A DNA stretch of 44,658 nt, taken from NCBI GenBank assembly GCA_051892935.1, contig JBJFGS010000036.1, positions 68,408 to 113,065 of the forward strand, written 5' to 3'. The DNA comes from Candidatus Coprovivens sp. GTDB taxonomy: Bacteria; Bacillota_I; Bacilli_A; RF39; UBA660. This document shows, piece by piece, positions 32,745-44,571 of the stretch (positions are counted from its first letter, which is position 1; each line of letters opens with the position of its first letter). The notes below the pieces were generated by a model. The model had not been told where the DNA came from. It was given only the letters and a program-made list of their open reading frames with translations, and made no database searches. Position numbers and translations under genes: made by a program.

Positions 32745-33575
32745 CTAATTATTAGTATCTTTCTTTTTATATCTAAATAATACAGAAGGCCTATGTCCTG
32801 CACCAGTCTTTACGAATTCAGTTTTTTCTACTTTATCAGCAATTATTCTTCTAAAAGCAGGATCCAACAATTTTTTGTTTAAAATAACTTCATAAACTTG
32901 TTGTAAATCACCTAAAGCAAACAATTCAGGCATCATATTAAAAACAACATCTGTATAACTTATTTTATTCTTCAGTCTTTCAATTCCAGACCATATAACT
33001 AAAGGGTGATCAAATGCCAAATTATCGTTTTCAATTATATCAAATTTATATCTATCAGTGGTCAATTCCTTTAAAGTTTTTCTAATTCTAAACTTTATAG
33101 TGTCAATTCCATTATCTAATACAACTAAAACCTCATTATTTTCTTCAAAATAACTTATATTAAACCAAGAAGCATTAACACTAAGTTTATCATTTAATCT
33201 ATTCTTATCAACTAATGCCATATAAGAAGTAGAAACAATTCTCATACGAGGATCTCTATCAACTGCACCAAAAGTATATAATTGTTCTAAATAAATATCA
33301 TGTAAATTAGTTTCACGAGCAAGTATTCTACGAGGACAATCTTCTAAATCCTCATTAACATCTAAGAATCCACCAGGTAAGCACCATTTATCTTTAAAAG
33401 GATAATCATCTCTTTTAACTAGTAATACACTCATATATTTCTTGCTAGACTTCCTATAATTAGCAACTTCTTCATCACTAATACTCAATATTAAAATATC
33501 AGTTGTTAACGAAATTCTTTCATACTTATTTGGATTATAATCCTTTAAAAACTCCTCTTCACTTTTATACATCAT
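32745..33575 (-). CDS. nrtR: NrtR-family regulator (Nudix plus winged HTH)
   Basis: WCLPGGF, LEQLYTFG..DRDPR, LAFDH, LQQVYEVIL...FRR and GHRPSVLF. Confidence 0.9.
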   Translation of the reverse strand: MMYKSEEEFLKDYNPNKYERISLTTDILILSISDEEVANYRKSSKKYMSVLLVKRDDYPFKDKWCLPGGFLDVNEDLEDCPRRILARETNLHDIYLEQLYTFGAVDRDPRMRIVSTSYMALVDKNRLNDKLSVNASWFNISYFEENNEVLVVLDNGIDTIKFRIRKTLKELTTDRYKFDIIENDNLAFDHPLVIWSGIERLKNKISYTDVVFNMMPELFALGDLQQVYEVILNKKLLDPAFRRIIADKVEKTEFVKTGAGHRPSVLFRYKKKDTNN

Positions 33576-33653: not shown

Positions 33654-34202
33654 ATGAAAATAGCAATAGATATAGATGATACACTTACTAATACAAAACA
33701 GCAACAAATAAAACTATGGAAAGAATACTATAATAACAGCCCTCACAAAGATTATTCAGAAAAACTTCCTCAAAATATTAATGAATGGGGAGAAAAATAT
33801 ATTGAAGACTTTTGGGATACTTATCGAGAATTATTATCATTTCACTCTTCATATAAAGATAACGTATCAGAAGTAATAGATAAACTATTACAAGATGGTC
33901 ATCAACTATATATTGTTACTTCTAGACCACAATATAAATACGATAACTTAATATCAAAAATCAAAAAAGCATTAAAAGATAACAAAATACATATTGATAA
34001 TATATACACAGATATATACGATAAAGGAAAATTTTGTAAAGATAATAATTTCGATTTACTAATAGATGATGATATTAAACATATAAAAAGTGCTCAAAAA
34101 AATGGTATAAAAACAATCCTATTTAACGAATATAAAAACTATAATGGAGTACAAGCAACAACATGGAAAGAAGTTTATAAAAAAATAAAAATGCTTAAAT
34201 AA
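33654..34202 (+). CDS. HAD-superfamily 5'-nucleotidase-like (NT5C type)
   Basis: IAIDIDDTL, IVTSR and K...LLIDDD motifs. Confidence 0.85.
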   Translation: MKIAIDIDDTLTNTKQQQIKLWKEYYNNSPHKDYSEKLPQNINEWGEKYIEDFWDTYRELLSFHSSYKDNVSEVIDKLLQDGHQLYIVTSRPQYKYDNLISKIKKALKDNKIHIDNIYTDIYDKGKFCKDNNFDLLIDDDIKHIKSAQKNGIKTILFNEYKNYNGVQATTWKEVYKKIKMLK

Positions 34203-34207
34203 CATTT

Positions 34208-35203
34208 TTATTTTTTTGTATGCATAGATTCTCCTTTAATCTTCTCAACATACTCTCTTATATATTCAATTGGTCCTTGAATTAAATGATTTTCATTAAG
34301 AATTTTAACTACTATTTCAGTTGGGCATTCCTTTATCATAGTATCAACAAGCTCACTATTACGTATTTCTAAAAATCTATTTTTTTCAATATTATCATTT
34401 AAATTTTTTTGTAATATCTTATTCTTGAACTCCAAGCAATATTTCTCAGCCCTTAATTTAACCACTTCACTATAATTCATATCAACACTAGGATTATATA
34501 TAATTACACCATCGATAGTTGAAACATAGCAATCTGGAAACATTTTTACAATTAATTCAACAAATCCATTACGTTCTAACAGCTGATTTCCCAATACAAT
34601 ACCACAAAACATATTACTTGGAACACCATATAAAATTGAAGACATAATCTCAGCATTACCAGGTAAACCTGCTACATTAACAAAATTTCTTGTTAACTTA
34701 GATTCATTAGTATCATTCCTATAACAATCATACTTAAAAAGTTTCTCTGCCTCTACTCTTGGTTCAATAACAAAAGCTAAAGCACTAGAGCCCCTTATAC
34801 CATTACCAAAAGGACACCTTCCATCAACATAAGTAAAACCATCATTATATTCTTTCATACTCATATCTCTTGAAACTCTATGAAAGTCAGCACAATAATA
34901 AGTTTCACCATCTTCTGATATACCAATTGCCTGACCTGTAAGTATTCCGGATTTACTAATACTTTCTAACTTATCAATATTACGTATACTACTTACACCA
35001 TGAATAATAGTTCCTTCTTTAAGCAAAACTCTTCCATCCTCAGATACCTCTAAAGAAATAGGATATAATTCTTTTTCTTTTAACTCATTATATCTATTTA
35101 TTTGATCAATTAATATTCTTTCTTGTTCAAAATCTAGTGGAACCTCAAGCAAAAAACCTTCCGGTATCTTAGTAACCTTTTCCATAATATCACCTACTAT
35201 CAT
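34208..35203 (-). CDS. Hypothetical protein with possible ADP-ribosyltransferase-like fold
   Basis: IIHG....L.SISKSGIL start-of-domain pattern; C-terminal coiled coil. Confidence 0.55.
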   Translation of the reverse strand: MIVGDIMEKVTKIPEGFLLEVPLDFEQERILIDQINRYNELKEKELYPISLEVSEDGRVLLKEGTIIHGVSSIRNIDKLESISKSGILTGQAIGISEDGETYYCADFHRVSRDMSMKEYNDGFTYVDGRCPFGNGIRGSSALAFVIEPRVEAEKLFKYDCYRNDTNESKLTRNFVNVAGLPGNAEIMSSILYGVPSNMFCGIVLGNQLLERNGFVELIVKMFPDCYVSTIDGVIIYNPSVDMNYSEVVKLRAEKYCLEFKNKILQKNLNDNIEKNRFLEIRNSELVDTMIKECPTEIVVKILNENHLIQGPIEYIREYVEKIKGESMHTKK

Positions 35204-35233: not shown

Positions 35234-36961
35234 TTATTCTTCTTTTTCTAATTCTCGATAATTAACCTTACCTATCATAGTTTTTGGTAAACTCTCTCTA
35301 AATACAAACTCTTTAGGTATCATATAAAAAGCCAAATTTTTCTCACAATATTCTTTTATTTCTTTTTTAAAAGAATTATCAACTTTAACACCGTTTTTTA
35401 CCACTATAAAAGCCTTTGGTACTTGAACTTTATAAGGATGAGGTATTCCTATCACTCCACAATTAACAATATCAGGATGAGTCATTAAAACATCTTCTAT
35501 ATGAGATGGATATACATTATAACCAGATACAATAAGCATTCTCTTTAATCTTTGTACATAGTATAAAATACCATCTTCAGTTACATATCCCAAATCTCCA
35601 GTTTTAACCCATATTTTACCATTAGAATCAACCTCTAACGTATCATTTGTTTCTTTTTCATTATCCAAATAACCTGTCATAACAACAGGACCTGAAATCA
35701 TAATTTCTCCCACTTCAAGAGGAGCAACTTCCTCCCTAGTTTCAATACTAACTATCTTCATATCATTTCCCGGTAATGGAATACCTATTGCACCAGGTAA
35801 AGAAGACCCCATAACACCTGCTACAGTAGGTCCTGTAGTTTCAGTCATTCCATAACCTTGTATTATTTCCGAATCACACCCATGACTTTTTAAAAACTTA
35901 TTTATCATTGTATTTTTAGATTCTGTTAAACAATCTCCACCACATATTAAATATTTAACATAAGATAAATCCATTCTATCCATATATTTATTAGTTAATA
36001 ACGCTTCATATAATGTAGGAACTCCTGCTACAATAGTAGGATGATATTTAGAAAACAATTTATCGAACCTTTTTGCATCAAATTGTGGAATCAAAATATC
36101 AGCTGCACCTAAACACAATACAGAATGAACACAAACACATAACCCAAAACAATGAAATAAAGGTAAAATTGTTAACATTGTATCTCCTACTCCAATTTTA
36201 GGAAAAACAATTGCAGCCTGTTTAGCTAAAGCATTAAGATTACCATTAGTTAAGACAATATTCTTAGGTGTACCTGTAGTACCTCCACTATGTAATATTG
36301 CAGCAGGTTGATCTTTAGTAGTTTTTACTAAGACTTTTTGATCAAAATGTTCACCTTTCATCATAAAATCATTCCAATACATAAAGTATTCAGACTTTTT
36401 AGGTGTTTCAACTTTTCTACCTTGAGTTATATAATAACCAAATCTCATTACTGGGGGCATTGAATCACCAGGTGATACAATAATTGTCTTATATACATTA
36501 GTATCTTCAATAATCTTTACAACTTTCTTACAACTAACATTTATAGCTATTAACATAACACTATTAGTACTATTTAATGAAAACTTAATTTCCTCCTCAG
36601 CAGATAAAGGATGAACCATATTAGCAATAGCACCTATCTTATTAACAGCATAAAATGATATAACTGCTTCTGGAGTATTAGCCATTAATATAGTTACTAC
36701 ATCACCAGGTCTAATTCCCTGGCTACGTAAAGCTTTTGCACATAAATTAATCTCACCAAAAAAATACTTAAAATTCATTTTATTATTAAAATAATTTATT
36801 GCTAAACTATTCATATTATTCTTATTGCATTCCCTTAAATATTCATAACAAGACATATTAGGTACCACAATATCCCTTTCACTCTTATCATAATACTTAT
36901 CCCATGGATGTTTATACTTAATTTTATTAATTGTTTTCTTAACTTGATCCATTATTTTCAT
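35234..36961 (-). CDS. Long-chain acyl-CoA ligase / AMP-binding enzyme
   Basis: HSGGTTGTPK, QGYGMTE, TGDLG and PKTMIGK. Confidence 0.92.
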   Translation of the reverse strand: MKIMDQVKKTINKIKYKHPWDKYYDKSERDIVVPNMSCYEYLRECNKNNMNSLAINYFNNKMNFKYFFGEINLCAKALRSQGIRPGDVVTILMANTPEAVISFYAVNKIGAIANMVHPLSAEEEIKFSLNSTNSVMLIAINVSCKKVVKIIEDTNVYKTIIVSPGDSMPPVMRFGYYITQGRKVETPKKSEYFMYWNDFMMKGEHFDQKVLVKTTKDQPAAILHSGGTTGTPKNIVLTNGNLNALAKQAAIVFPKIGVGDTMLTILPLFHCFGLCVCVHSVLCLGAADILIPQFDAKRFDKLFSKYHPTIVAGVPTLYEALLTNKYMDRMDLSYVKYLICGGDCLTESKNTMINKFLKSHGCDSEIIQGYGMTETTGPTVAGVMGSSLPGAIGIPLPGNDMKIVSIETREEVAPLEVGEIMISGPVVMTGYLDNEKETNDTLEVDSNGKIWVKTGDLGYVTEDGILYYVQRLKRMLIVSGYNVYPSHIEDVLMTHPDIVNCGVIGIPHPYKVQVPKAFIVVKNGVKVDNSFKKEIKEYCEKNLAFYMIPKEFVFRESLPKTMIGKVNYRELEKEE

Positions 36962-37004
36962 AATATTCCTCCTCTATTATTAAAGATTATTAATAGATTT
37001 TAAA

Positions 37005-37130
37005 AATTATTAAACATTTGTTGAATAACTTTCACTTGTATTATATAATTAATATACAATCTACATCAATAATCAATAGTATTATGATTTGCTAATTATT
37101 AAACACTAATCATAAATATGTTTAACAATT
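37005..37130. promoter_or_regulatory. Candidate TetR operators
   Basis: AATTATTAAACA at 37005 and 37094, with inverted TGTTTAACAATT at 37119. Confidence 0.45.
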
Positions 37131-37175
37131 ATTCATACTGCTATATTATTAATATATTCTTGAAGGAGGAATATT

Positions 37176-37739
37176 ATGGACAGAAGAATAAAATATACAA
37201 AAAAAACAATAAAAGATACATTTATAAAACTATTATCTGAAAAAGACATAAAAAAAATTACAGTGAGTGAAATATGTAAAAAGTCAGATATAAATAGAGC
37301 AACATTCTATCGCTATTACATAGATGTATATGATTTATTAGATAAAATACAAGAAGAATTTATAAATGAACTTAAAACACCATACTTAGAAAATCCAACA
37401 AGAGTAAGTACTGTTGGTGCTTTTTCTAAAGAAATATTAAACGTCTTTATTGCTAACAAAGAATTAGTAAAAATTCTATTTAACACTAATAATAATATCT
37501 ATTTTCTAAATGATGTATTAGAAGTCGCCTATGGAATGTGTAAGACCAAATGGTTATCAGATAAACCAACTCTAACAGAAGATGAAATCAACTATGCTGC
37601 AACATTTATTTTTAATGGAGCTTTAGGCGTAGTAAACTTCTGGGTAAAAAATGATTTTGATAAAGATATTGATGAAGTAGCTAATGCAATTGAACAATTA
37701 GGTTACTTTGGAACAAAAAGATTTATCTACAAAAAATAA
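37176..37739 (+). CDS. TetR/AcrR-family regulator
   Basis: DRRIKYTKK...ITVSEICKKSDINRATFYRYY; divergent from the acyl-CoA ligase. Confidence 0.92.
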   Translation: MDRRIKYTKKTIKDTFIKLLSEKDIKKITVSEICKKSDINRATFYRYYIDVYDLLDKIQEEFINELKTPYLENPTRVSTVGAFSKEILNVFIANKELVKILFNTNNNIYFLNDVLEVAYGMCKTKWLSDKPTLTEDEINYAATFIFNGALGVVNFWVKNDFDKDIDEVANAIEQLGYFGTKRFIYKK

Positions 37740-37764
37740 GAACTCAAAAAGTTCTTATTTTTAT

Positions 37765-38574
37765 TTAATTACTTAATATTTTATTATTAATAACTTTTAT
37801 AAAATGAAAATCATTCATACGTAAACATTTAATAGATTTACCATCTAGCTTAGTCTCAACTTTTATAACATTATTCATCAACTTATTAACACCGTCAACT
37901 TGAATAAACAAGTCTTTATAATCATCTTTAGGTACCAAAGTAATTACCCTATTTCCAGGTACTATTACACTATTAACTAATGTCTTATAAACTTTATTAT
38001 TTAAAGGAGCAATTGGAGTAATAGTTAATATACTCAAAGTATTATAAATAATACTTCCCCCAAAACTCATATTATAAGCAGTACTTCCAGTACTAGTACT
38101 TATAAGTAATCCATCTCCAGAAAAATCTTCAAGTAATTCATCATCAACATATACTGGAACTTTTAAAGAATTAAATTCTTTATTCCTTACCACTATTTCA
38201 TTTAAGCTATCATAGTAATATATTTTATCTTCAGTTATTATCTTTGTTTCTTGAATACCTATTTCTTCTACCTTATACTCACCACAATTAAGCCTTTTAA
38301 CAAAATCAGAAGTATCTTTAATATCAATCTCCTGTAAGAAACCTAAAGTACCACTATTAACACCAATATAATAAATATTTTGATTAAATTTAGTTTCTTT
38401 AACCATTCTTAAGAAAGATCCATCACCACCAATAGATATAGCCAAATCAAATGCTCCTTTTGTTACTATTTTAAATCCATATTTAATCAGTTCTAACTCC
38501 AAATCTTTTGCGACAATATTAGATTGTTCATTATCATTAACGAATAATTTTATTTTATTAATTTTTCTCCCCAT
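37765..38574 (-). CDS. nadK: NAD kinase
   Basis: GGDGSFL, GTLGFL, LNE and GDGLLISTSTGSTAYNMS.GG. Confidence 0.95.
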   Translation of the reverse strand: MGRKINKIKLFVNDNEQSNIVAKDLELELIKYGFKIVTKGAFDLAISIGGDGSFLRMVKETKFNQNIYYIGVNSGTLGFLQEIDIKDTSDFVKRLNCGEYKVEEIGIQETKIITEDKIYYYDSLNEIVVRNKEFNSLKVPVYVDDELLEDFSGDGLLISTSTGSTAYNMSFGGSIIYNTLSILTITPIAPLNNKVYKTLVNSVIVPGNRVITLVPKDDYKDLFIQVDGVNKLMNNVIKVETKLDGKSIKCLRMNDFHFIKVINNKILSN

Positions 38575-39038
38575 AATAGTTCACCCAACAATTCAATAAT
38601 TCTATCTATAATAACTATCTTATTTTGTTTTCTAGTTTTCTTATCTACATTAATAACCATATCATAATATTTTTCTTTATAATAAATACTAACAAATACT
38701 TGATTATCTTTACCATAATTATTATTTACATCAGCTCTATTTAACTTACCAGTTATTCCTACTCCAAAATCAGAATTAGCAAACTTAGAAATATTAAGCG
38801 CCATTTCATGAGCAGTTTCAATACTATATACACTATATTCATTAATTATATCAGCAGAAACTCCCATTTTTATCTTATATTGATTAGAATATGTAACAGC
38901 ACTAAATTTAAGTACTTCAGAAGCACCCTCTATTGAAGTTATAGCATCAGCTACACCTCCACCGGTACAAGATTCCATTGTAGCTATTGTTTCTCCTCTT
39001 TTTATTAATTCTAAAACTATCTTTTTAAATGTTTTCAT
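38550..39038 (-). CDS. cinA: CinA C-terminal domain protein (PncC-type NMN deamidase)
   Basis: IATMESCTGG, GAS, VTYSN..K and GVGITG; lacks the MocF domain. Confidence 0.85.
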   Translation of the reverse strand: MKTFKKIVLELIKRGETIATMESCTGGGVADAITSIEGASEVLKFSAVTYSNQYKIKMGVSADIINEYSVYSIETAHEMALNISKFANSDFGVGITGKLNRADVNNNYGKDNQVFVSIYYKEKYYDMVINVDKKTRKQNKIVIIDRIIELLGELLWGEKLIK

Positions 39039-39080
39039 ATTATTCTCCGTTCCTTCTAAATAACTATTATACCCACTATT

Positions 39081-39995
39081 CTATTTATATAAAAGCTTTT
39101 TCCCAAAACCAGCAGTTACTTTATTATCCGATGTATAAACTAACTGTGTAGTATAAGGACATTCACAATCCTTAACCATTCTTGCATAAAACTCTACCAT
39201 CTTATCATTATTAGTTAAATAAACACCATCTACGCACTCACAATACTCTCCGCTATAAAAGTGATGCCCTAAATAAAAACTATCATCCAAATGACTAAAA
39301 ATATCATTAAAATTAATAAAGTGTTCTTTAGAATAATGATTACACTTCATCAAAGATACAAAACCATTCTTATATACACCAACATTCCCAACATAATCAA
39401 GCATTCTCTTAATATCATATAAATCATCTATATAATCTTTCATAACTAAAGTATTAATATTTATAATACGTTTATCATCTAATCCTTCTTGCAAAAACAC
39501 TATATCTTCTGTACTAGCAACATCCCTACTACCAAAGATTTGATAATTAATCTCATCATCATAATGATGTCTAGATATGTGGATAGATTCTAACTTATTA
39601 ACACATTCCATATTAAGAAACTCTCTTAAATTATAACCATTAGTACTAATAGCTACCTCTAAACTAGAATCAATACTATATATTATATTTAATAATAAAT
39701 TAACCTTACTAGGATCAATCATCGGTTCTCCACCAGTAATACTAATACCATGTAATACATTCTTATAGAGTAAATACCTAATAACAAACTCTAACTTTTT
39801 AAAATCAATATTTCCAAAATCTCTAGATTCTTTATTAGCACAAAACATACAATTAGCACTACATCCATCAGTTAACTTTATATAAAGTCTCAAAGATGGC
39901 TTTACTATCATAGTTTTACTTATATCTGTACTACACAAAGTATCTCTTACAATAATATCTTGGCCAAACAAATTGATAGTTTTCATAATTAACAA
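39081..39995 (-). CDS. Radical SAM protein
   Basis: CSANCMFC (CxxxCxxC), ITGGEP, STNG; additional C-terminal CEC motifs. Confidence 0.92.
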   Translation of the reverse strand: MLIMKTINLFGQDIIVRDTLCSTDISKTMIVKPSLRLYIKLTDGCSANCMFCANKESRDFGNIDFKKLEFVIRYLLYKNVLHGISITGGEPMIDPSKVNLLLNIIYSIDSSLEVAISTNGYNLREFLNMECVNKLESIHISRHHYDDEINYQIFGSRDVASTEDIVFLQEGLDDKRIININTLVMKDYIDDLYDIKRMLDYVGNVGVYKNGFVSLMKCNHYSKEHFINFNDIFSHLDDSFYLGHHFYSGEYCECVDGVYLTNNDKMVEFYARMVKDCECPYTTQLVYTSDNKVTAGFGKKLLYK

Positions 39996-40372
39996 CTCCT
40001 ATAACTTGGACTACAACCTCCACAACTTGATGATGTATCCCTTTGATAATGTTTATAATGTTTATCATCATATGCTGTTTGTCTTGTTTTTCCTAACTTT
40101 CTTACAGTATCTTTCTCTTCTTCTCTACCTTGTAAAATCATTGTAACATCAATATCTCCCAATTTATTTTTCAAAGCCATTAATTCATCAAGACAATCAA
40201 CTATAATATCTATATCATCTAAAGTAACACTACTAACCATTTTTGTAAGTTCTAAATAATCTTTAAACTTTATAATATTTTGTTTAATCAAATCTTTATC
40301 ATCATCTTTACTTTGATTTATTATTCTATTAATAAACTCTAATACATCTCCATATAAAAACATATTATTCAC
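39989..40372 (-). CDS. Hypothetical protein with Ser/Cys/Gly-rich C-terminal tail
   Basis: Ends HYKHYQRDTSSSCGGCSPSYRSC; overlaps or abuts both nadR and the radical SAM gene. Confidence 0.8.
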   Translation of the reverse strand: MNNMFLYGDVLEFINRIINQSKDDDKDLIKQNIIKFKDYLELTKMVSSVTLDDIDIIVDCLDELMALKNKLGDIDVTMILQGREEEKDTVRKLGKTRQTAYDDKHYKHYQRDTSSSCGGCSPSYRSC

Positions 40373-41378
40373 CTCTAATTAGCTCTAAAATTTTCTTTTT
40401 ACTACCTTCATATCTCTTTTGATAATCTCCACTAATAGTTACATATTCAATTCCATTTTTATCTAATAAAGCTTTTAAATCTAAATTATTCTTTTCTCTA
40501 ATACTTTGTTCCCCATAAGTTCTAGTGCCATCTTGTACCCATTCTACATCTGGTTCTAAGAAGATATACAAATCATAATTATTAAATACACTAATACCTT
40601 CAGCTATATTAGCAAAAACTTGATTAATAGGATCATCATCTTTAAAACCCAAATTATAATAATATAGTGTTATTAAAGAATCTGTATCAATTATCATTAC
40701 TTTATTAGCATAAGTTAATGCTTCTTTTTCAAGCTGTTTATGTTTAAATAAGATTTCAAAATAATGATATTTTTGCATATTATCTATTCCACCAGCTTCA
40801 TCACATATATATCTACCAGCTTCTTCTACATAAGTAGTATTAAAATACAAAGCTAAATTTCTCACCAAAGTAGATTTTCCACAACTCTCAGTACCAACAA
40901 TACATACTTTTTTTATATAATACCTTTGAACTATATTTGGTAAATAATCATAGTACTTATACGGATTACTTCTTATCTCAGTTGAAGATATATTAACAAT
41001 ATCTCTAGAAAAATAAACTATTTCAGACTCTGGATACAACATTTCCCAAATATTCTTTCCTTTATAATCATCTCCAGAAAATACTACATCTATTTTTTCA
41101 CCAATCGCTTTTTTTACATCTTTAGCCCCATTCTCCCAATCATAAGTATCTTTTGAACTATTATTATCAAATATTTCTATTACTTCAACATTATCCATGT
41201 GACTAGTAACTTCCTTTAACCACATTAGTCTTTCCCTATGATCTATTTCTTTTGAATCATTAGTAACACTAAGTATCACAAATAACTTTTTACATTGATT
41301 AGCAGACATAATAATATCATTTACATGACCCAAATGTAATGGATTAAAACTCCCTCCATACATTCCTACTCCATACAT
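40365..41378 (-). CDS. nadR: NadR-type NMN adenylyltransferase / nicotinamide riboside kinase (no HTH)
   Basis: GGSFNPLHLGH, ISSTEIR, GTESCGKST and WVQDGTR. Confidence 0.92.
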   Translation of the reverse strand: MYGVGMYGGSFNPLHLGHVNDIIMSANQCKKLFVILSVTNDSKEIDHRERLMWLKEVTSHMDNVEVIEIFDNNSSKDTYDWENGAKDVKKAIGEKIDVVFSGDDYKGKNIWEMLYPESEIVYFSRDIVNISSTEIRSNPYKYYDYLPNIVQRYYIKKVCIVGTESCGKSTLVRNLALYFNTTYVEEAGRYICDEAGGIDNMQKYHYFEILFKHKQLEKEALTYANKVMIIDTDSLITLYYYNLGFKDDDPINQVFANIAEGISVFNNYDLYIFLEPDVEWVQDGTRTYGEQSIREKNNLDLKALLDKNGIEYVTISGDYQKRYEGSKKKILELIRGE

Positions 41379-41379
41379 A

Positions 41380-42051
41380 CTAATTCTCCTTTGCTATTTT
41401 AGTCCAATTATAATAACCATAGAAAGCATTTATTAAATAAACAGCCCACATAGTTACCATTATAAAATCTCCAACTAATAACCACATTACAACAGTTATT
41501 ACATCTATAATAATCCATAATAACCATTGTTCCCTATATCTCATCATCATTAAAGCATTTGCAACTATACTAATTATAGTAGAAGCACTATCAAGTAACG
41601 TTCCATTACCACCAAGCATATCAAGAATAAATTTATACCCAAATATTCCAATAGTAATAACTACTAAGAAAATAATACTTTGTCTTATATTTAGTTTTTT
41701 ACCCTCAACACCATTAGTATCTTTATTAGTATGTTTATTCCATAAATAATAGCCTATAAATTGTGAAGGCAAATAATATAAAGCATTTAACATAACTTCA
41801 CCATAGTACCTATTTATCCAAGCTATAATAATATATCCAATTATATTTAATAATCCCCATATATATTGACTCTTCTTACCTTTTGCGCATAATACTACAC
41901 AAATTATTCCACATATAGCAGCTATACCATCAATTAATAAGTACCATATACTAACACCTTCACTAATAATAGAAAAATATATTGTAAATCCAATTACCGA
42001 TCCTATCATTATCCATTCAAATAAACTAAATTTCTCTAAAATTTTTCTCAT
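41380..42051 (-). CDS. pnuC: Nicotinamide riboside transporter PnuC
   Basis: Multi-TM; LDS..T, RYREQW.LWI..D and GYYNW. Confidence 0.92.
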   Translation of the reverse strand: MRKILEKFSLFEWIMIGSVIGFTIYFSIISEGVSIWYLLIDGIAAICGIICVVLCAKGKKSQYIWGLLNIIGYIIIAWINRYYGEVMLNALYYLPSQFIGYYLWNKHTNKDTNGVEGKKLNIRQSIIFLVVITIGIFGYKFILDMLGGNGTLLDSASTIISIVANALMMMRYREQWLLWIIIDVITVVMWLLVGDFIMVTMWAVYLINAFYGYYNWTKIAKEN

Positions 42052-42062
42052 CTCATAAACTC

Positions 42063-42644
42063 CTATTCATATAATTTATTTCTTTTTATATAATCTAAAA
42101 CATCTTTATCAATTAAATCTAATACACTATCCTTATTTTGTATTTTATTTCTAATATCAGTAGAAGATATATCTCTTTGTTCAATATCAGTTAAAACAAT
42201 GTTATCTTTATATACTTTAAACTTATCTAATAATTCATTAATATCTTCACCTTTTCTTTTAATAACAAGTATCTTATAATTACTTAATATCTCCTCACCA
42301 TTCATCCATTTATCCATATAACTTAAATTATCTGTTCCACATATGAAATATATTTCATCATCAGGATTTATCTTTTTAAAATAATTTAAAGTTTGATATG
42401 TATAAACAACTTTACTCTTCATTTCATAATCACTTACATCCAAATTGTTATTATTATTAACAATAATCTGTAACATTTCCAATCTATTTATATCCGGTAA
42501 TAAATTATTTTTATATTTATACTTACTTCCAGTAGGAACAAAAACAATTTTATCAACATAATGTTTATTAATTAAATCTAAACAAATACTTATATGCATT
42601 TTATGTGGTGGATTAAAGCTTCCTCCAAATATACCAATTCTCAT
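42063..42644 (-). CDS. nadD: Nicotinate-nucleotide adenylyltransferase
   Basis: IGIFGGSFNPPH..H, YTYQTL, FICG.D and ISSTDIR. Confidence 0.92.
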   Translation of the reverse strand: MRIGIFGGSFNPPHKMHISICLDLINKHYVDKIVFVPTGSKYKYKNNLLPDINRLEMLQIIVNNNNNLDVSDYEMKSKVVYTYQTLNYFKKINPDDEIYFICGTDNLSYMDKWMNGEEILSNYKILVIKRKGEDINELLDKFKVYKDNIVLTDIEQRDISSTDIRNKIQNKDSVLDLIDKDVLDYIKRNKLYE

Positions 42645-42658
42645 AATATTGCCTCTTC

Positions 42659-42683
42659 TGTTATTAATATTTTGTTAATAAGT
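42659..42683. promoter_or_regulatory. Palindromic operator copy 1 (candidate NrtR box)
   Basis: TGTTATTAA-tattttg-TTAATAAGT immediately upstream of nadD. Confidence 0.65.
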
Positions 42684-42695
42684 AATGTATAAAAA

Positions 42696-43112
42696 TTAAT
42701 AACCCTGTGGTACTTTATTCAATGTTTGATTCTTCTTTTTTTCAATATTAATAGTAATTCCCTTAAAAAATGCACTTTTTACTTCATGTTCATTCATTCC
42801 ATAACCTTCCCATCTACTATTAAGTCCATCATTTAAAGTAACATCAGTAACTCTAAGATCATATAAATTAAATAATGATATTAGAATCGTTTTTAGTTCA
42901 TCTTCTGTGATTGTCTGTTTTACTTCCTTTTTCATACCCATTATTTCAATAATTTCTGAAACAGTTATAGTAGTAACACACCCTTCTTCATCTCTCCAAC
43001 CTGTATATCCTTTTTTAGCATTAATAGAAGCTTTAACTTCTCTACTTTCTAACCTTTTATAATATTCTTCAATTAGTTTAGTTGTTTCTTCCTTAGTAAA
43101 ATCAATTTTCAT
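42696..43112 (-). CDS. Hypothetical protein, first gene of the NAD operon
   Basis: AGGAGG RBS; flanked by operator copies. Confidence 0.8.
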   Translation of the reverse strand: MKIDFTKEETTKLIEEYYKRLESREVKASINAKKGYTGWRDEEGCVTTITVSEIIEIMGMKKEVKQTITEDELKTILISLFNLYDLRVTDVTLNDGLNSRWEGYGMNEHEVKSAFFKGITINIEKKKNQTLNKVPQGY

Positions 43113-43128
43113 AACAATCCTCCTAATA

Positions 43129-43153
43129 TGTTATTTTCATTTTGTTAATAACA
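43129..43153. promoter_or_regulatory. Palindromic operator copy 2
   Basis: TGTTATTTT-cattttg-TTAATAACA. Confidence 0.6.
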
Positions 43154-43182
43154 CATATTATTTTTTTAAGAACATGTATTTC

Positions 43183-43226
43183 GTTCTTGTTATTAACATT
43201 ATATTAATAACAAGAACATTTGTCAA
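43183..43226 (-). promoter_or_regulatory. Consensus sigmaA promoter overlapped by operator copy 3
   Basis: Minus-strand TTGACA (43226-43221)-17-TATAAT (43203-43198); GTTCTTGTTATTAA-N7-TTAATAACAAGAAC is centred on the -10. Confidence 0.8.
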
Positions 43227-43272
43227 TATAAAATTACAAAAAAAAACATATATTATAAAATATATGTTAAAA

Positions 43273-43584
43273 CTAACTATATAAGTTTTGACTAGCATCA
43301 GCTTCTAATGATTGAGCAGTATCTTGAGTTGATTTGCTAGCACTAGCAATAGTATCAGCAAAATTTTGAACCAACGAAATGTAAGCTTCAAATCTTTGCT
43401 TCTTTAGATCCTCAAAAGTAGCTTCAAAAGTATCAGCAGCCGTACCAACAAAATCACCATTCATAATTAAAGTACGAACTACATTAGCAAAGTTTTCTAA
43501 ATCACTTTCCATGTTATTACGTCCGTTAACTATTTCTGTAACAGCATCACCAACACTACTAAATTTAATATTTGTATTAGCCAT
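43273..43584 (-). CDS. WXG100/ESAT-6-like protein
   Basis: About 103 aa helical hairpin, central GDFVGTAADTF; start reassigned to MANTNIK. Confidence 0.75.
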   Translation of the reverse strand: MANTNIKFSSVGDAVTEIVNGRNNMESDLENFANVVRTLIMNGDFVGTAADTFEATFEDLKKQRFEAYISLVQNFADTIASASKSTQDTAQSLEADASQNLYS

Positions 43585-43888
43585 TATTAGCACCACCTAC
43601 TCTAGTAATAATATCTTCTTCGTTTTCTTCTACTTTAGAAGCAGCTCTTGCACAATAATCTGCATACCCACAAATAGCATTATACATAGCCTCTAAATTT
43701 GGCCTTTGTTCAAATATTCTATTCGCAATAACAGTTGCTGCTGGACTTGTCCACTCACTTCCAACAAGTGTATCAACTACTAAAAACATTTTTTCATATT
43801 CACTTTTAAATGATTCTGCAGTCTGTCTAATTTTATTAGAACCATCACTTAAAGCACCTGTACGAGCTCCAAAAATATCTCCTGACAT
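43577..43888 (-). CDS. WXG100/ESAT-6-like protein
   Basis: About 103 aa, central SEWTSPAA, C-terminal YADY..AA..VEENEE; GGGAGG RBS; overlaps the next gene. Confidence 0.75.
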   Translation of the reverse strand: MSGDIFGARTGALSDGSNKIRQTAESFKSEYEKMFLVVDTLVGSEWTSPAATVIANRIFEQRPNLEAMYNAICGYADYCARAASKVEENEEDIITRVGGANNG

Positions 43889-43983
43889 TAATCTCATCCT
43901 CCCATATATTTCCTAATTAAAGTATATCAATTATTTTTTTATTTTCCAACAAAAATGTCAAATATTTAACATTAATAAACATT

Positions 43984-44571
43984 TTATTTAATTGTTACTA
44001 TTTCTCCAACAAGACCTTTATAAGAGTCAACATCCGCAGATCCTGATGTTAATTTTCCATAAGCAGAACTATCTGCTCCTGGCAATCCCTCTAATAATTC
44101 CATTAACTTTTTATATTTCTTTGCTTTTTCTTCAGCCGCATCCCTCTGTGATATCAAAGAACTTAAACTTGTTGTCTCTGTTTTAGAATCATAAGAATTA
44201 ATTCGACTATTTAAATTGTCAACACTTTGTTTAGCACTTTCATATTCTGCCTTAAAAGTATCATAATCATCGGTATCCAATTTACTCTCACCTTCCATAT
44301 AATCAGATAAAGATCTATTAGACTCCTTTATAGCATTTATTAAATTATCAGCAGCAGATATTCTATGATTCATTAATATTGAATAATTATTTAATTGCTT
44401 TCTAATAGCATCAAAAGAATCCCCTATTAAAACTTCTTGCGATGAAGAAATAAAGTCCTGAATAGCTCTTATTACAGCTTGAGCATCCTCTTTATCTTTC
44501 ATCAAATTATTTACTCCCACCGAACTATTTGCTGCTTCTAAATCTGACTTATTAACTAACATCATAACCAC
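43984..44571 (-). CDS. LXG-like helical protein
   Basis: All-helical; EVLIGDSFDAIR (LxG) at the hairpin turn. Confidence 0.6.
   Translation of the reverse strand: MVMMLVNKSDLEAANSSVGVNNLMKDKEDAQAVIRAIQDFISSSQEVLIGDSFDAIRKQLNNYSILMNHRISAADNLINAIKESNRSLSDYMEGESKLDTDDYDTFKAEYESAKQSVDNLNSRINSYDSKTETTSLSSLISQRDAAEEKAKKYKKLMELLEGLPGADSSAYGKLTSGSADVDSYKGLVGEIVTIK

Follow-up and report, generated by a model that had tools for sequence, protein, structure and literature searches.

A radical SAM gene and a Cys-ended partner gene in an NAD operon

We analysed a 44 658 nt stretch of DNA from Candidatus Coprovivens sp. (contig JBJFGS010000036.1; hereafter the window), in which two adjacent genes, one for a small protein that ends in Cys and one for a radical S-adenosylmethionine (SAM) enzyme (rSAM), lie within an operon devoted to nicotinamide adenine dinucleotide (NAD) metabolism. 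The operon comprises eight co-oriented minus-strand genes: a 138 aa open reading frame (ORF), nadD, pnuC, nadR, the small ORF, the rSAM gene, pncC and nadK (table 1). A first-pass annotation made from the sequence alone had already placed the pair inside an NAD operon, and this is confirmed by the gene order, nadD-pnuC-nadR-[pair]-pncC-nadK, together with family matches above the cut-offs for NadD, PnuC, NadR and PncC.

Counted from a GTG codon, the small ORF (39989..40372, minus strand) encodes 127 aa with the C-terminal end HYKHYQRDTSSSCGGCSPSYRSC; counted from ATG 40363 it encodes 124 aa, the last residues being ...SSSCGGCSPSYRSC. The ATG is the likely start, because MFL forms the N-terminus in all six homologues of the small protein. 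Similarly, ATG 39986 is the likely start of the rSAM gene, since the Met three residues into the longer form (MKT in the window) is the start in 15 of 15 aligned homologues. The genes are closely packed. The nadR stop lies 1 nt before the ATG of the small gene, and the small gene ends in a TAA (39991-39989) that is separated by 2 nt from the rSAM ATG (39986-39984), so that its stop abuts the rSAM gene as had been noted at first sight. An AGGAG Shine–Dalgarno sequence lies 7 nt 5′ of the rSAM ATG, within the partner gene. As read from the sequence, this junction has the layout of translational coupling.

Partner and radical SAM enzyme form a conserved unit

One genome per species was scanned, yielding 62 loci with rSAM relatives at 28–88% identity. 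Relatives of the rSAM are numerous, with at least 536 in a protein set clustered at 90%. A single-sequence search with the small protein found only seven, and we conclude that it evolves fast. A profile built from 40 partner sequences was run over all ORFs of 40 aa or more at these loci and matched 57 ORFs in 53 of the 62 bacterial loci; every one of the 57 is on the rSAM strand and ends in Cys. By inspection, two loci without a profile match (L029 and L034) have a Ser/Cys-tailed, Cys-ended ORF just upstream, and a third (L042) has a 102 aa ORF just downstream that ends RRRCGWC. At five others (L010, L026, L052, L055 and L060) a contig end falls at the expected partner position, while the long-branch outlier L062 lacks a partner ORF. 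A co-oriented, Cys-ended small ORF is present at 56 of the 62 loci, or 56 of the 57 readable neighbourhoods. The background is 10 Cys-ended ORFs among the 719 others at these loci, a count that includes a few unclustered family members. The partner and the rSAM are a conserved, co-inherited unit.

Searching the whole library with the same profile recovered 265 cluster representatives (clustering at 50% identity) at E ≤ 1e-3, 83 of them at E ≤ 1e-10. Among the 150 representatives listed, Cys is the last residue in 135, of which 126 have Arg at position -1 to -3; the commonest ends in this list are GRC (48), SRC (20) and RSC (10). Six of the 15 listed representatives that are not Cys-ended terminate in RCG, RCR or GCR, and several of the 15 look like fragments. 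The first-pass annotation had proposed, as one option, an undescribed protein-modification pair with a large leader and a short core, an idea that would have been refuted had rSAM homologues not occurred together with such tails. They do occur with Cys-ended small ORFs, so this check does not refute it, and a conserved unit with a folded, leader-like body and an invariant terminal Cys agrees with the proposal.

The alignment of the 40 partners has a single invariant column, the C-terminal Cys. Two residues of the helical body, F10 and L37, are nearly invariant, and an Arg usually stands one to three residues before the terminal Cys. Partner size ranges from about 86 to 202 aa across the family. 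The tail rich in Ser, Cys and Gly is confined to the window's clade and a second clade, varies in length and contains repeated SSxCG-type units. Partners from Lachnospiraceae are about 90 aa long and consist of a charged helix whose one Cys is the last residue, usually after Arg (GRC); likewise, 56 of the 61 short representatives among those listed have one Cys in their last 30 residues. The Cys/Gly/Ser tail on which attention first fell is therefore present in the window's protein but is not the conserved determinant, since Lachnospiraceae partners manage with a single Cys. Most members of the window's clade also have a KHYxHY motif before the Ser/Cys tail (in the window at about 40050-40110, partner residues ~100-108), which is absent from the Lachnospiraceae and phage forms.

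AlphaFold2 (AF2) models the small protein as helical over residues 4-105, with a predicted local distance difference test score (pLDDT) above 90 to about residue 70 and of about 50 in the tail, so the body is predicted to be a folded domain of about 80 aa. No family for it was found in Pfam, NCBIfam or PADLOC, the ESM Atlas gave no usable match and a Foldseek comparison of the model with the PDB returned nothing at E ≤ 0.001 (best E 1.2). Some known types of modified or carrier protein were considered and set aside. Sulfatases carry the formylglycine motif C-x-P-x-R; the tail has C-S-P-S-Y-R, and the motif is missing in most family members. There is no YcaO-type gene for heterocyclization of the kind seen in thiazole/oxazole-modified microcins, and the protein ends in Cys, not in the Gly-Gly of MoaD/ThiS-like carriers.

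The enzyme resembles MoaA at a distance

Membership of the radical SAM superfamily is clear from the match to PF04055 (47.7 bits against a gathering score of 29.5) and the conserved CX3CX2C motif, formed by C45/C49/C52 in the 304 aa form and by C42/C46/C49 when counted from MKT, the numbering used below. The first-pass annotation drew attention to extra C-terminal CEC motifs, which lie at 252-254 and 277-279 in the 304 aa numbering. The first of these is invariant: all 53 rSAMs compared have Cys at positions 18, 42, 46, 49, 249 and 251. The second (C274/C276) is restricted to the window's clade and, like C215, is clade-specific. GGE, IHISRHHY, N147, N178 and G293 are also invariant. In MoaA, a second cluster is held by three Cys and has an open iron. 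Because three extra Cys are invariant here, an auxiliary [4Fe-4S] cluster in which one iron is open is probably bound by C18, C249 and C251, by analogy with MoaA.

No family model fits the enzyme closely. The only Pfam matches are Radical_SAM (PF04055) and Fer4_12 (PF13353), and Pfam and NCBIfam hold no model specific to either protein of the pair. The specific NCBIfam models all score far below their cut-offs, with MoaA best (TIGR02666, 56.8 against 284.05; TIGR02668, 45.7 against 325.25; NF001199, 43.8 against 231); the others include the activases (PFLA, 39.6 against 231.75; NrdG2, 38.8 against 131.15; E ~1e-10 for PflA/NrdG) and the viperin model NF038283 (34.1 bits against 180). In PADLOC the best match is pVip at 41.4 bits, a model supplied with no cut-off. 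Profile searches of the PDB gave MoaA (E 2e-8), then viperin-like enzymes, YydG/EpeE and BlsE; weak matches to peptide-modifying rSAMs comprise YydG/EpeE, HxsC, SuiB and SkfB. The AF2 model of the rSAM is of high confidence (mean pLDDT 93.8, predicted template modelling (TM) score 0.90), and the nearest solved folds are MoaA (TM score 0.64, 20% identity) and a fungal viperin-like enzyme (0.61). From the ESM Atlas came only rSAM clusters without a name, whose taxon label was rich in viruses, and Foldseek against BFVD only generic phage rSAMs. One longer, fused form of 914 aa was seen once, on a 3.3 kb contig and with 42% query cover, and we judged it uninformative.

A predicted complex docks the partner on the enzyme

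The complex was modelled in three runs from the partner and rSAM alignments; SAM and two 4Fe-4S clusters were included as riding ligands. The median interface score (ipSAE) over the three runs was 0.83, against 0.53 for the best control; of 80 solved complexes 58 attained that mark, as did 2 of 110 mismatched pairs. Contacts agreed between runs to at least 57%, and the partner pLDDT was at least 72. In the best run, helices 1-2 of the partner (residues 6-42) are placed on enzyme residues 235-265, the C-terminal β-sheet that carries C249 and C251, while partner residues 98-114 contact enzyme residues 17-20, 26, 110, 133-134 and 171-173, near C18 and the IHISRHHY strand. The model passed its controls and supports direct binding of the partner to the rSAM. 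Structure modelling had been suggested at the outset as a check on insertion of the tail into the barrel. The answer is partial: the body is predicted to dock and the tail to run to the barrel mouth by C18, but the terminal Cys is not placed, because the last ten residues of the partner, the Cys included, lie outside the confident contacts.

Neighbourhoods link the pair to PnuC and NadR

NadR and/or PnuC are encoded within 6 kb of the pair at 31 of the 62 loci. The tree of the family resolves deeply separated clades. Clade A, to which the window belongs, contains 18 loci from uncultured Bacilli or from metagenome-assembled genomes labelled ‘Tenericutes’. Their gene order is nadD-pnuC-nadR-partner-rSAM-pncC-(nrtR)-nadK; the surroundings include prs, pncB, Nudix and nadE genes. 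Of the 18 loci, 16 have both NadR and PnuC, and the remaining two are cut by contig ends. The pncC gene directly downstream of the rSAM in the window has relatives at 18 loci, and homologues of the 138 aa ORF come first in the NAD operon at 10 related loci.

In group B (14 loci: L018-L023, L025-L029, L032, L034 and L060) a further rSAM, HemN-like and about 430 aa long, accompanies the pair and is encoded before or after the 300 aa rSAM; STM4012 and HemW are the models that match it best, both below cut-off. Two tandem Zn_peptidase_2 genes lie upstream in five of the group B loci. Clade C consists of 29 loci from Lachnospiraceae and other Clostridia with the order GRC-ended partner, a protein of about 320 aa with a weak BspA-LRR match, rSAM, DUF2201 metallopeptidase/VWA protein and MoxR-like AAA protein. 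PnuC and/or NadR follow in 15 of the 29, and one further locus has NrtR only. The DUF2201 metallopeptidase/VWA gene is found at 21 loci. Among 51 cluster representatives scanned from the 62 loci there were no genes for molybdopterin synthesis or glycyl-radical enzymes, the scanned genes of the window's operon and the ORFs near it likewise include none for molybdopterin, and the scanned neighbours at the 62 loci include no ThiF-like or Rgg genes. At three loci (L038, L043 and L046) the GRC-ended partner is present in two tandem copies.

Huge phages carry the pair

We searched 50,697 phage records with the rSAM by tblastn. Full-length relatives, at 27–29% identity, occur in only four records, all from huge uncultured phages. 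Two of the four share identical length and coordinates, so three phage loci were read. In LR745206.1 (635 kb) a TonB-receptor-like gene is followed by pnuC, nadR, an 86 aa ORF ending GCGGGSYRRSSC and the rSAM, which is the order of the window. In LR756502.1 (642 kb) a 129 aa ORF ending GGGYSTSRC precedes the rSAM, and nadR and pnuC follow downstream on the opposite strand. In LR756501.1 (735 kb) a 165 aa ORF ending PSYSGC precedes the rSAM, and NAD genes are absent from the 3 kb around them. NadR and PnuC are thus encoded beside the pair in two of three huge phage genomes. The phage rSAMs retain C18, CX3CX2C and CxC. Matches in Dulem virus 40 and in Erwinia phage are partial and distant (25.9–27.2% identity over 49–70% of the query). 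In both phage loci that have pnuC, a TonB-dependent-receptor-like ORF of 660-683 aa, judged by eye, directly adjoins it (L063, 7810-9861, minus strand; L065, 1191-3173, plus strand); it is unusual phage cargo.

It had been suggested that the pair might serve as a conflict response to NAD depletion. Carriage beside pnuC and nadR in huge phages fits such a role, but the pair sits in a housekeeping NAD operon at 18 loci of small-genome Bacilli, which argues against a dedicated function in defence.

A candidate enzyme and dedicated substrate

Whether the two genes encode a dedicated enzyme–substrate pair is, in our judgement, finely balanced. Given the conservation of the sequences and the modelled complex, the most likely activity of the rSAM would be modification of the terminal Cys of its partner. 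The helical body would then act as a leader-like or docking domain, and the flexible tail would feed the terminal Arg-x-Cys into the active site. There, the open iron of the auxiliary cluster (C18, C249 and C251) could bind the terminal Cys through its thiolate or carboxylate, and the 5′-deoxyadenosyl radical would abstract a hydrogen atom from it. The outcome would be an oxidized, decarboxylated or desulfurized C-terminus, which might stay on the protein or be freed by a peptidase; the peptidase genes near the pair, such as the DUF2201 gene, count in favour of such a scheme. The SSxCG repeats of the window's clade could be additional reactive units of the same kind.

Either the product or the reaction itself probably serves NAD supply, because linkage to PnuC and NadR recurs at half of the bacterial loci, which span two deep clades, and in two of the three huge phages. 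More tentatively, and with the chances somewhat against it, this would be the first radical SAM step tied to NAD, either making a pyridine-linked cofactor or metabolite based on the terminal Cys (possibly sulfur-bearing and derived from a protein or peptide) or rendering an environmental pyridine riboside usable. If true, the pair would be an accessory arm of PnuC–NadR salvage, present in huge phages too, where it would keep NAD up in infected cells.

Several observations weigh against this interpretation. The predicted auxiliary cluster is deduced from just three Cys residues. Apart from leaving the terminal Cys unplaced, the complex prediction still scored 0.53 when the enzyme was replaced, and our use of our own alignments and riding ligands deviates from the calibration of the complex-prediction tool. 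Pfam and NCBIfam detected no SPASM/twitch domain or RiPP recognition element (RRE; RiPPs are peptides made by the ribosome and modified after translation), the twitch model NF033640 reaching 25.4 bits against 170, and the nearest folds, MoaA and the viperin-like enzymes, act on nucleotides rather than proteins. The link to NAD is also uneven. NadR and PnuC are absent from all 14 loci of the HemN-like group B, only two of which have any NAD gene, and both are missing from 14 of the 29 clade C loci; in the Butyrivibrio loci (L042, L044 and L056) the module is flanked by purF-like and purB-like genes, and NAD genes are out of reach. The small phage ORFs fall short of E ≤ 1e-3 with the partner profile, and for this reason their kinship to the partners rests on position and endings. 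Finally, PnuC and NadR by themselves suffice to convert nicotinamide riboside (NR) to NAD, so no missing step calls for the pair.

The principal competing explanation, which we consider rather unlikely, is that a small pyridine nucleoside or nucleotide is the substrate of the rSAM (NR, nicotinamide mononucleotide (NMN), nicotinic acid mononucleotide, NAD or an environmental derivative imported by PnuC), with the small protein as co-substrate or helper. The terminal Cys would donate sulfur or hydrogen or carry an intermediate covalently, in the manner of sacrificial Cys donors and carrier proteins, and the tails with several Cys would allow several turnovers per protein. The nucleotide-using nearest relatives count for this idea (MoaA and, at TM scores no higher than 0.61, the viperin-like enzymes, with the PADLOC match to pVip), as does the proximity of the pair to PnuC and NadR, seen in phages as well as in two clades of bacteria. 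The Lachnospiraceae version adds genes for MoxR-like AAA and VWA proteins, pairs of which often act in cofactor or metal insertion. Yet the nucleotide-enzyme models all score far below their cut-offs, and the enzyme has few basic residues for a phosphate chain, those that are invariant or nearly so being only R139, R269 and three His. A large conserved docking surface and an Arg beside the Cys suit a protein substrate at least equally well, and the loci with the HemN-like enzyme are mostly without NAD genes. A divergent housekeeping enzyme of MoaA or activase type, whether a GTP cyclase or a glycyl-radical activase with a GrcA-like radical carrier, seems to us very improbable. MoaA is the best match in the NCBIfam, PDB-sequence and fold comparisons, the PflA and NrdG models match at E ~1e-10, and the GTG-counted partner is the same length as GrcA of E. 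coli (127 aa). The MoaA, PFLA and NrdG2 scores are nonetheless far below the cut-offs, the scanned representatives of the 62 loci include neither molybdopterin nor glycyl-radical enzyme genes, and the partner has no conserved Gly near its C-terminus, where the terminal Cys alone is invariant.

The layout of a precursor gene followed by an rSAM gene also recalls a secreted RiPP or bacteriocin-like product, in which the Ser/Cys-rich core of the partner would be cross-linked and exported, its position within the NAD operon being a coincidence. The repeated Cys-bearing units resemble multi-core precursors, and there are the weak matches to YydG/EpeE, HxsC, SuiB and SkfB. In addition, a streptococcal rSAM-RiPP family has a precursor that is named for a GRC motif and has its C-terminal Cys in a thiolactone (PMC13361665); in make-up this family differs from the present pair by its short, Rgg-controlled peptides and a ThiF-like enzyme. 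We regard a secreted product as improbable, because genes for export or immunity are lacking, a single core residue is conserved, the operon is a housekeeping one and phages carry the pair. The window's operon also lacks a leader peptidase and a ThiF-like gene, Lachnospiraceae partners have no Ser/Cys-rich core at all, the body is predicted to fold into a domain of some 80 aa, 18 related loci retain the pair within the NAD operon, and neither a SPASM domain nor an RRE was detected.

The reading as an enzyme with a dedicated protein substrate can be set against known systems. MoaA shares with the rSAM a core of similar length and a β-rich, Cys-bearing C-terminal part, as well as being its best match in sequence and fold. 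However, one of the three extra Cys of the present enzyme is N-terminal (C18), its C-terminus is LLYK, it has no nearby molybdenum cofactor genes and a Cys-ended partner accompanies it in every readable neighbourhood bar one outlier. The pairs PqqE/PqqA and MftC/MftA and the enzymes SuiB, CteB, SkfB and YydG/EpeE are alike in that an rSAM lies beside a small dedicated substrate whose reactive residues are C-terminal. The present pair has an adjacent candidate precursor with a conserved C-terminal core at 56 of 62 loci and leader-like docking in the complex model. It differs from these peptide maturases in the lack of a detected SPASM/twitch or PqqD-like RRE domain, in a folded partner without a known fold, in having one conserved core residue and in its occurrence in primary NAD metabolism and in phages. 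Prokaryotic viperins have the rSAM core in common with the enzyme (fold TM score 0.5-0.6, weak PADLOC pVip match) and also occur in conflict contexts. The match to their model is far below its cut-off, though, and this rSAM is paired with a partner protein, which viperins are not known to need. In the biosynthesis of 3-thiaglutamate and other pearlins, a C-terminal Cys displayed on a scaffold peptide is altered chemically and afterwards cleaved off (PMC9303977, PMC9016710). In those pathways the Cys is added by a tRNA-dependent ligase and processed by enzymes other than rSAMs, whereas in the present pair it is part of the encoded protein and its predicted modifying enzyme belongs to the rSAMs.

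What is new here is the link to NAD salvage and the phage carriage of an rSAM with a putative dedicated substrate, which is unprecedented. As far as we know, PnuC–NadR salvage is regarded as fully mapped, with no radical SAM enzyme in it. The literature covered, which excludes subscription journals, contained no description of the pair, and it turned up no radical SAM step in NAD salvage, in keeping with what the first-pass annotation had stated. A pair that lies in an operon of small-genome gut Bacilli, near the same genes in Lachnospiraceae and in phages of 635-642 kb, points to an unrecognized NAD-linked reaction or cofactor. It would also define a new substrate logic for rSAMs, in which a folded docking domain is combined with a single invariant C-terminal Cys. 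The question is directly testable, since cultured strains carry the pair (Butyrivibrio proteoclasticus P6B7, Butyrivibrio sp. VCB2006 and Eubacterium ruminantium FB3002).

The operon promoter and surrounding genes

Table 1. Positions of the pair, the other operon genes and regulatory features in the window.
Feature	Position	Strand	Basis and remarks
Sigma-70-like promoter, TTGACA-17-TATAAT	43226 to 43198	-	12/12 matches to consensus; 5′ of the 138 aa ORF
Palindrome TGTTATTAA-N7-TTAATAACA	43187-43213	-	exact; overlaps the operon promoter at its -10 box
ORF without known family, 138 aa	42696..43112	-	first gene after the promoter; no match in Pfam or NCBIfam
NadD, nicotinate-nucleotide adenylyltransferase	42063..42644	-	TIGR00482, 161.7 bits (cut-off 112.45)
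PnuC, nicotinamide riboside transporter	41380..42051	-	TIGR01528, 147.2 bits (cut-off 42.45)
NadR-type bifunctional NMN adenylyltransferase/ribosylnicotinamide kinase, without helix-turn-helix domain	40365..41378	-	NF005988, 206.9 bits (cut-off 201)
Small partner gene	39989..40363	-	ORF; 124 aa from ATG 40363; helical body, low-confidence Ser/Cys/Gly tail, C-terminal Cys
Radical SAM gene	39081..39986	-	301 aa from ATG 39986; 304 aa from TTG 39995
PncC/CinA-domain NMN amidohydrolase family protein	38550..39038	-	TIGR00199, 84.8 bits (cut-off 68.9); Pfam CinA
NAD kinase	37765..38574	-	Pfam NAD_kinase and NAD_kinase_C; final gene of the co-oriented run
NrtR-family regulator (Nudix and NrtR winged helix)	32745..33575	-	PF21906, 50.6 bits; PF00293, 42.4 bits

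The NadR-type protein of the operon matches Pfam CTP_transf_like and AAA_28. Upstream of the first gene, the -10 box of the promoter is bracketed by a 14 bp perfect inverted repeat. The palindrome TGTTATTAA-N7-TTAATAACA, for which 0.24 matches would be expected in the window by chance, is found exactly 5′ of the operon in five related clade A loci too, and a weaker second site lies at 42658-42684. Most NrtR sites are 21 bp palindromes with a GT-N7-AC core, with motifs that differ among lineages (PMC2330246); the promoter palindrome is without that core. No terminator-like sites were found in 37000-43400, and an Rfam scan of 36900-43400 gave no riboswitch, the sole match being a chance snoRNA (E 0.9).

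The gene for the NrtR-family regulator lies about 4 kb past the last operon gene, with four unrelated ORFs between: a TetR-family gene (37176-37739, plus strand), an acyl-CoA-synthetase-like gene (35234-36961), a 331 aa ORF without a family (34208-35203) and a HAD/5′-nucleotidase-like gene (33654-34202, plus strand). Just upstream of the NAD operon are WXG100-like small ORFs (43273-43596 and 43577-43897, minus strand) and near them a weakly DUF6847-like ORF (43984-44571, minus strand), an arrangement that resembles a cluster of type VII secretion substrates.

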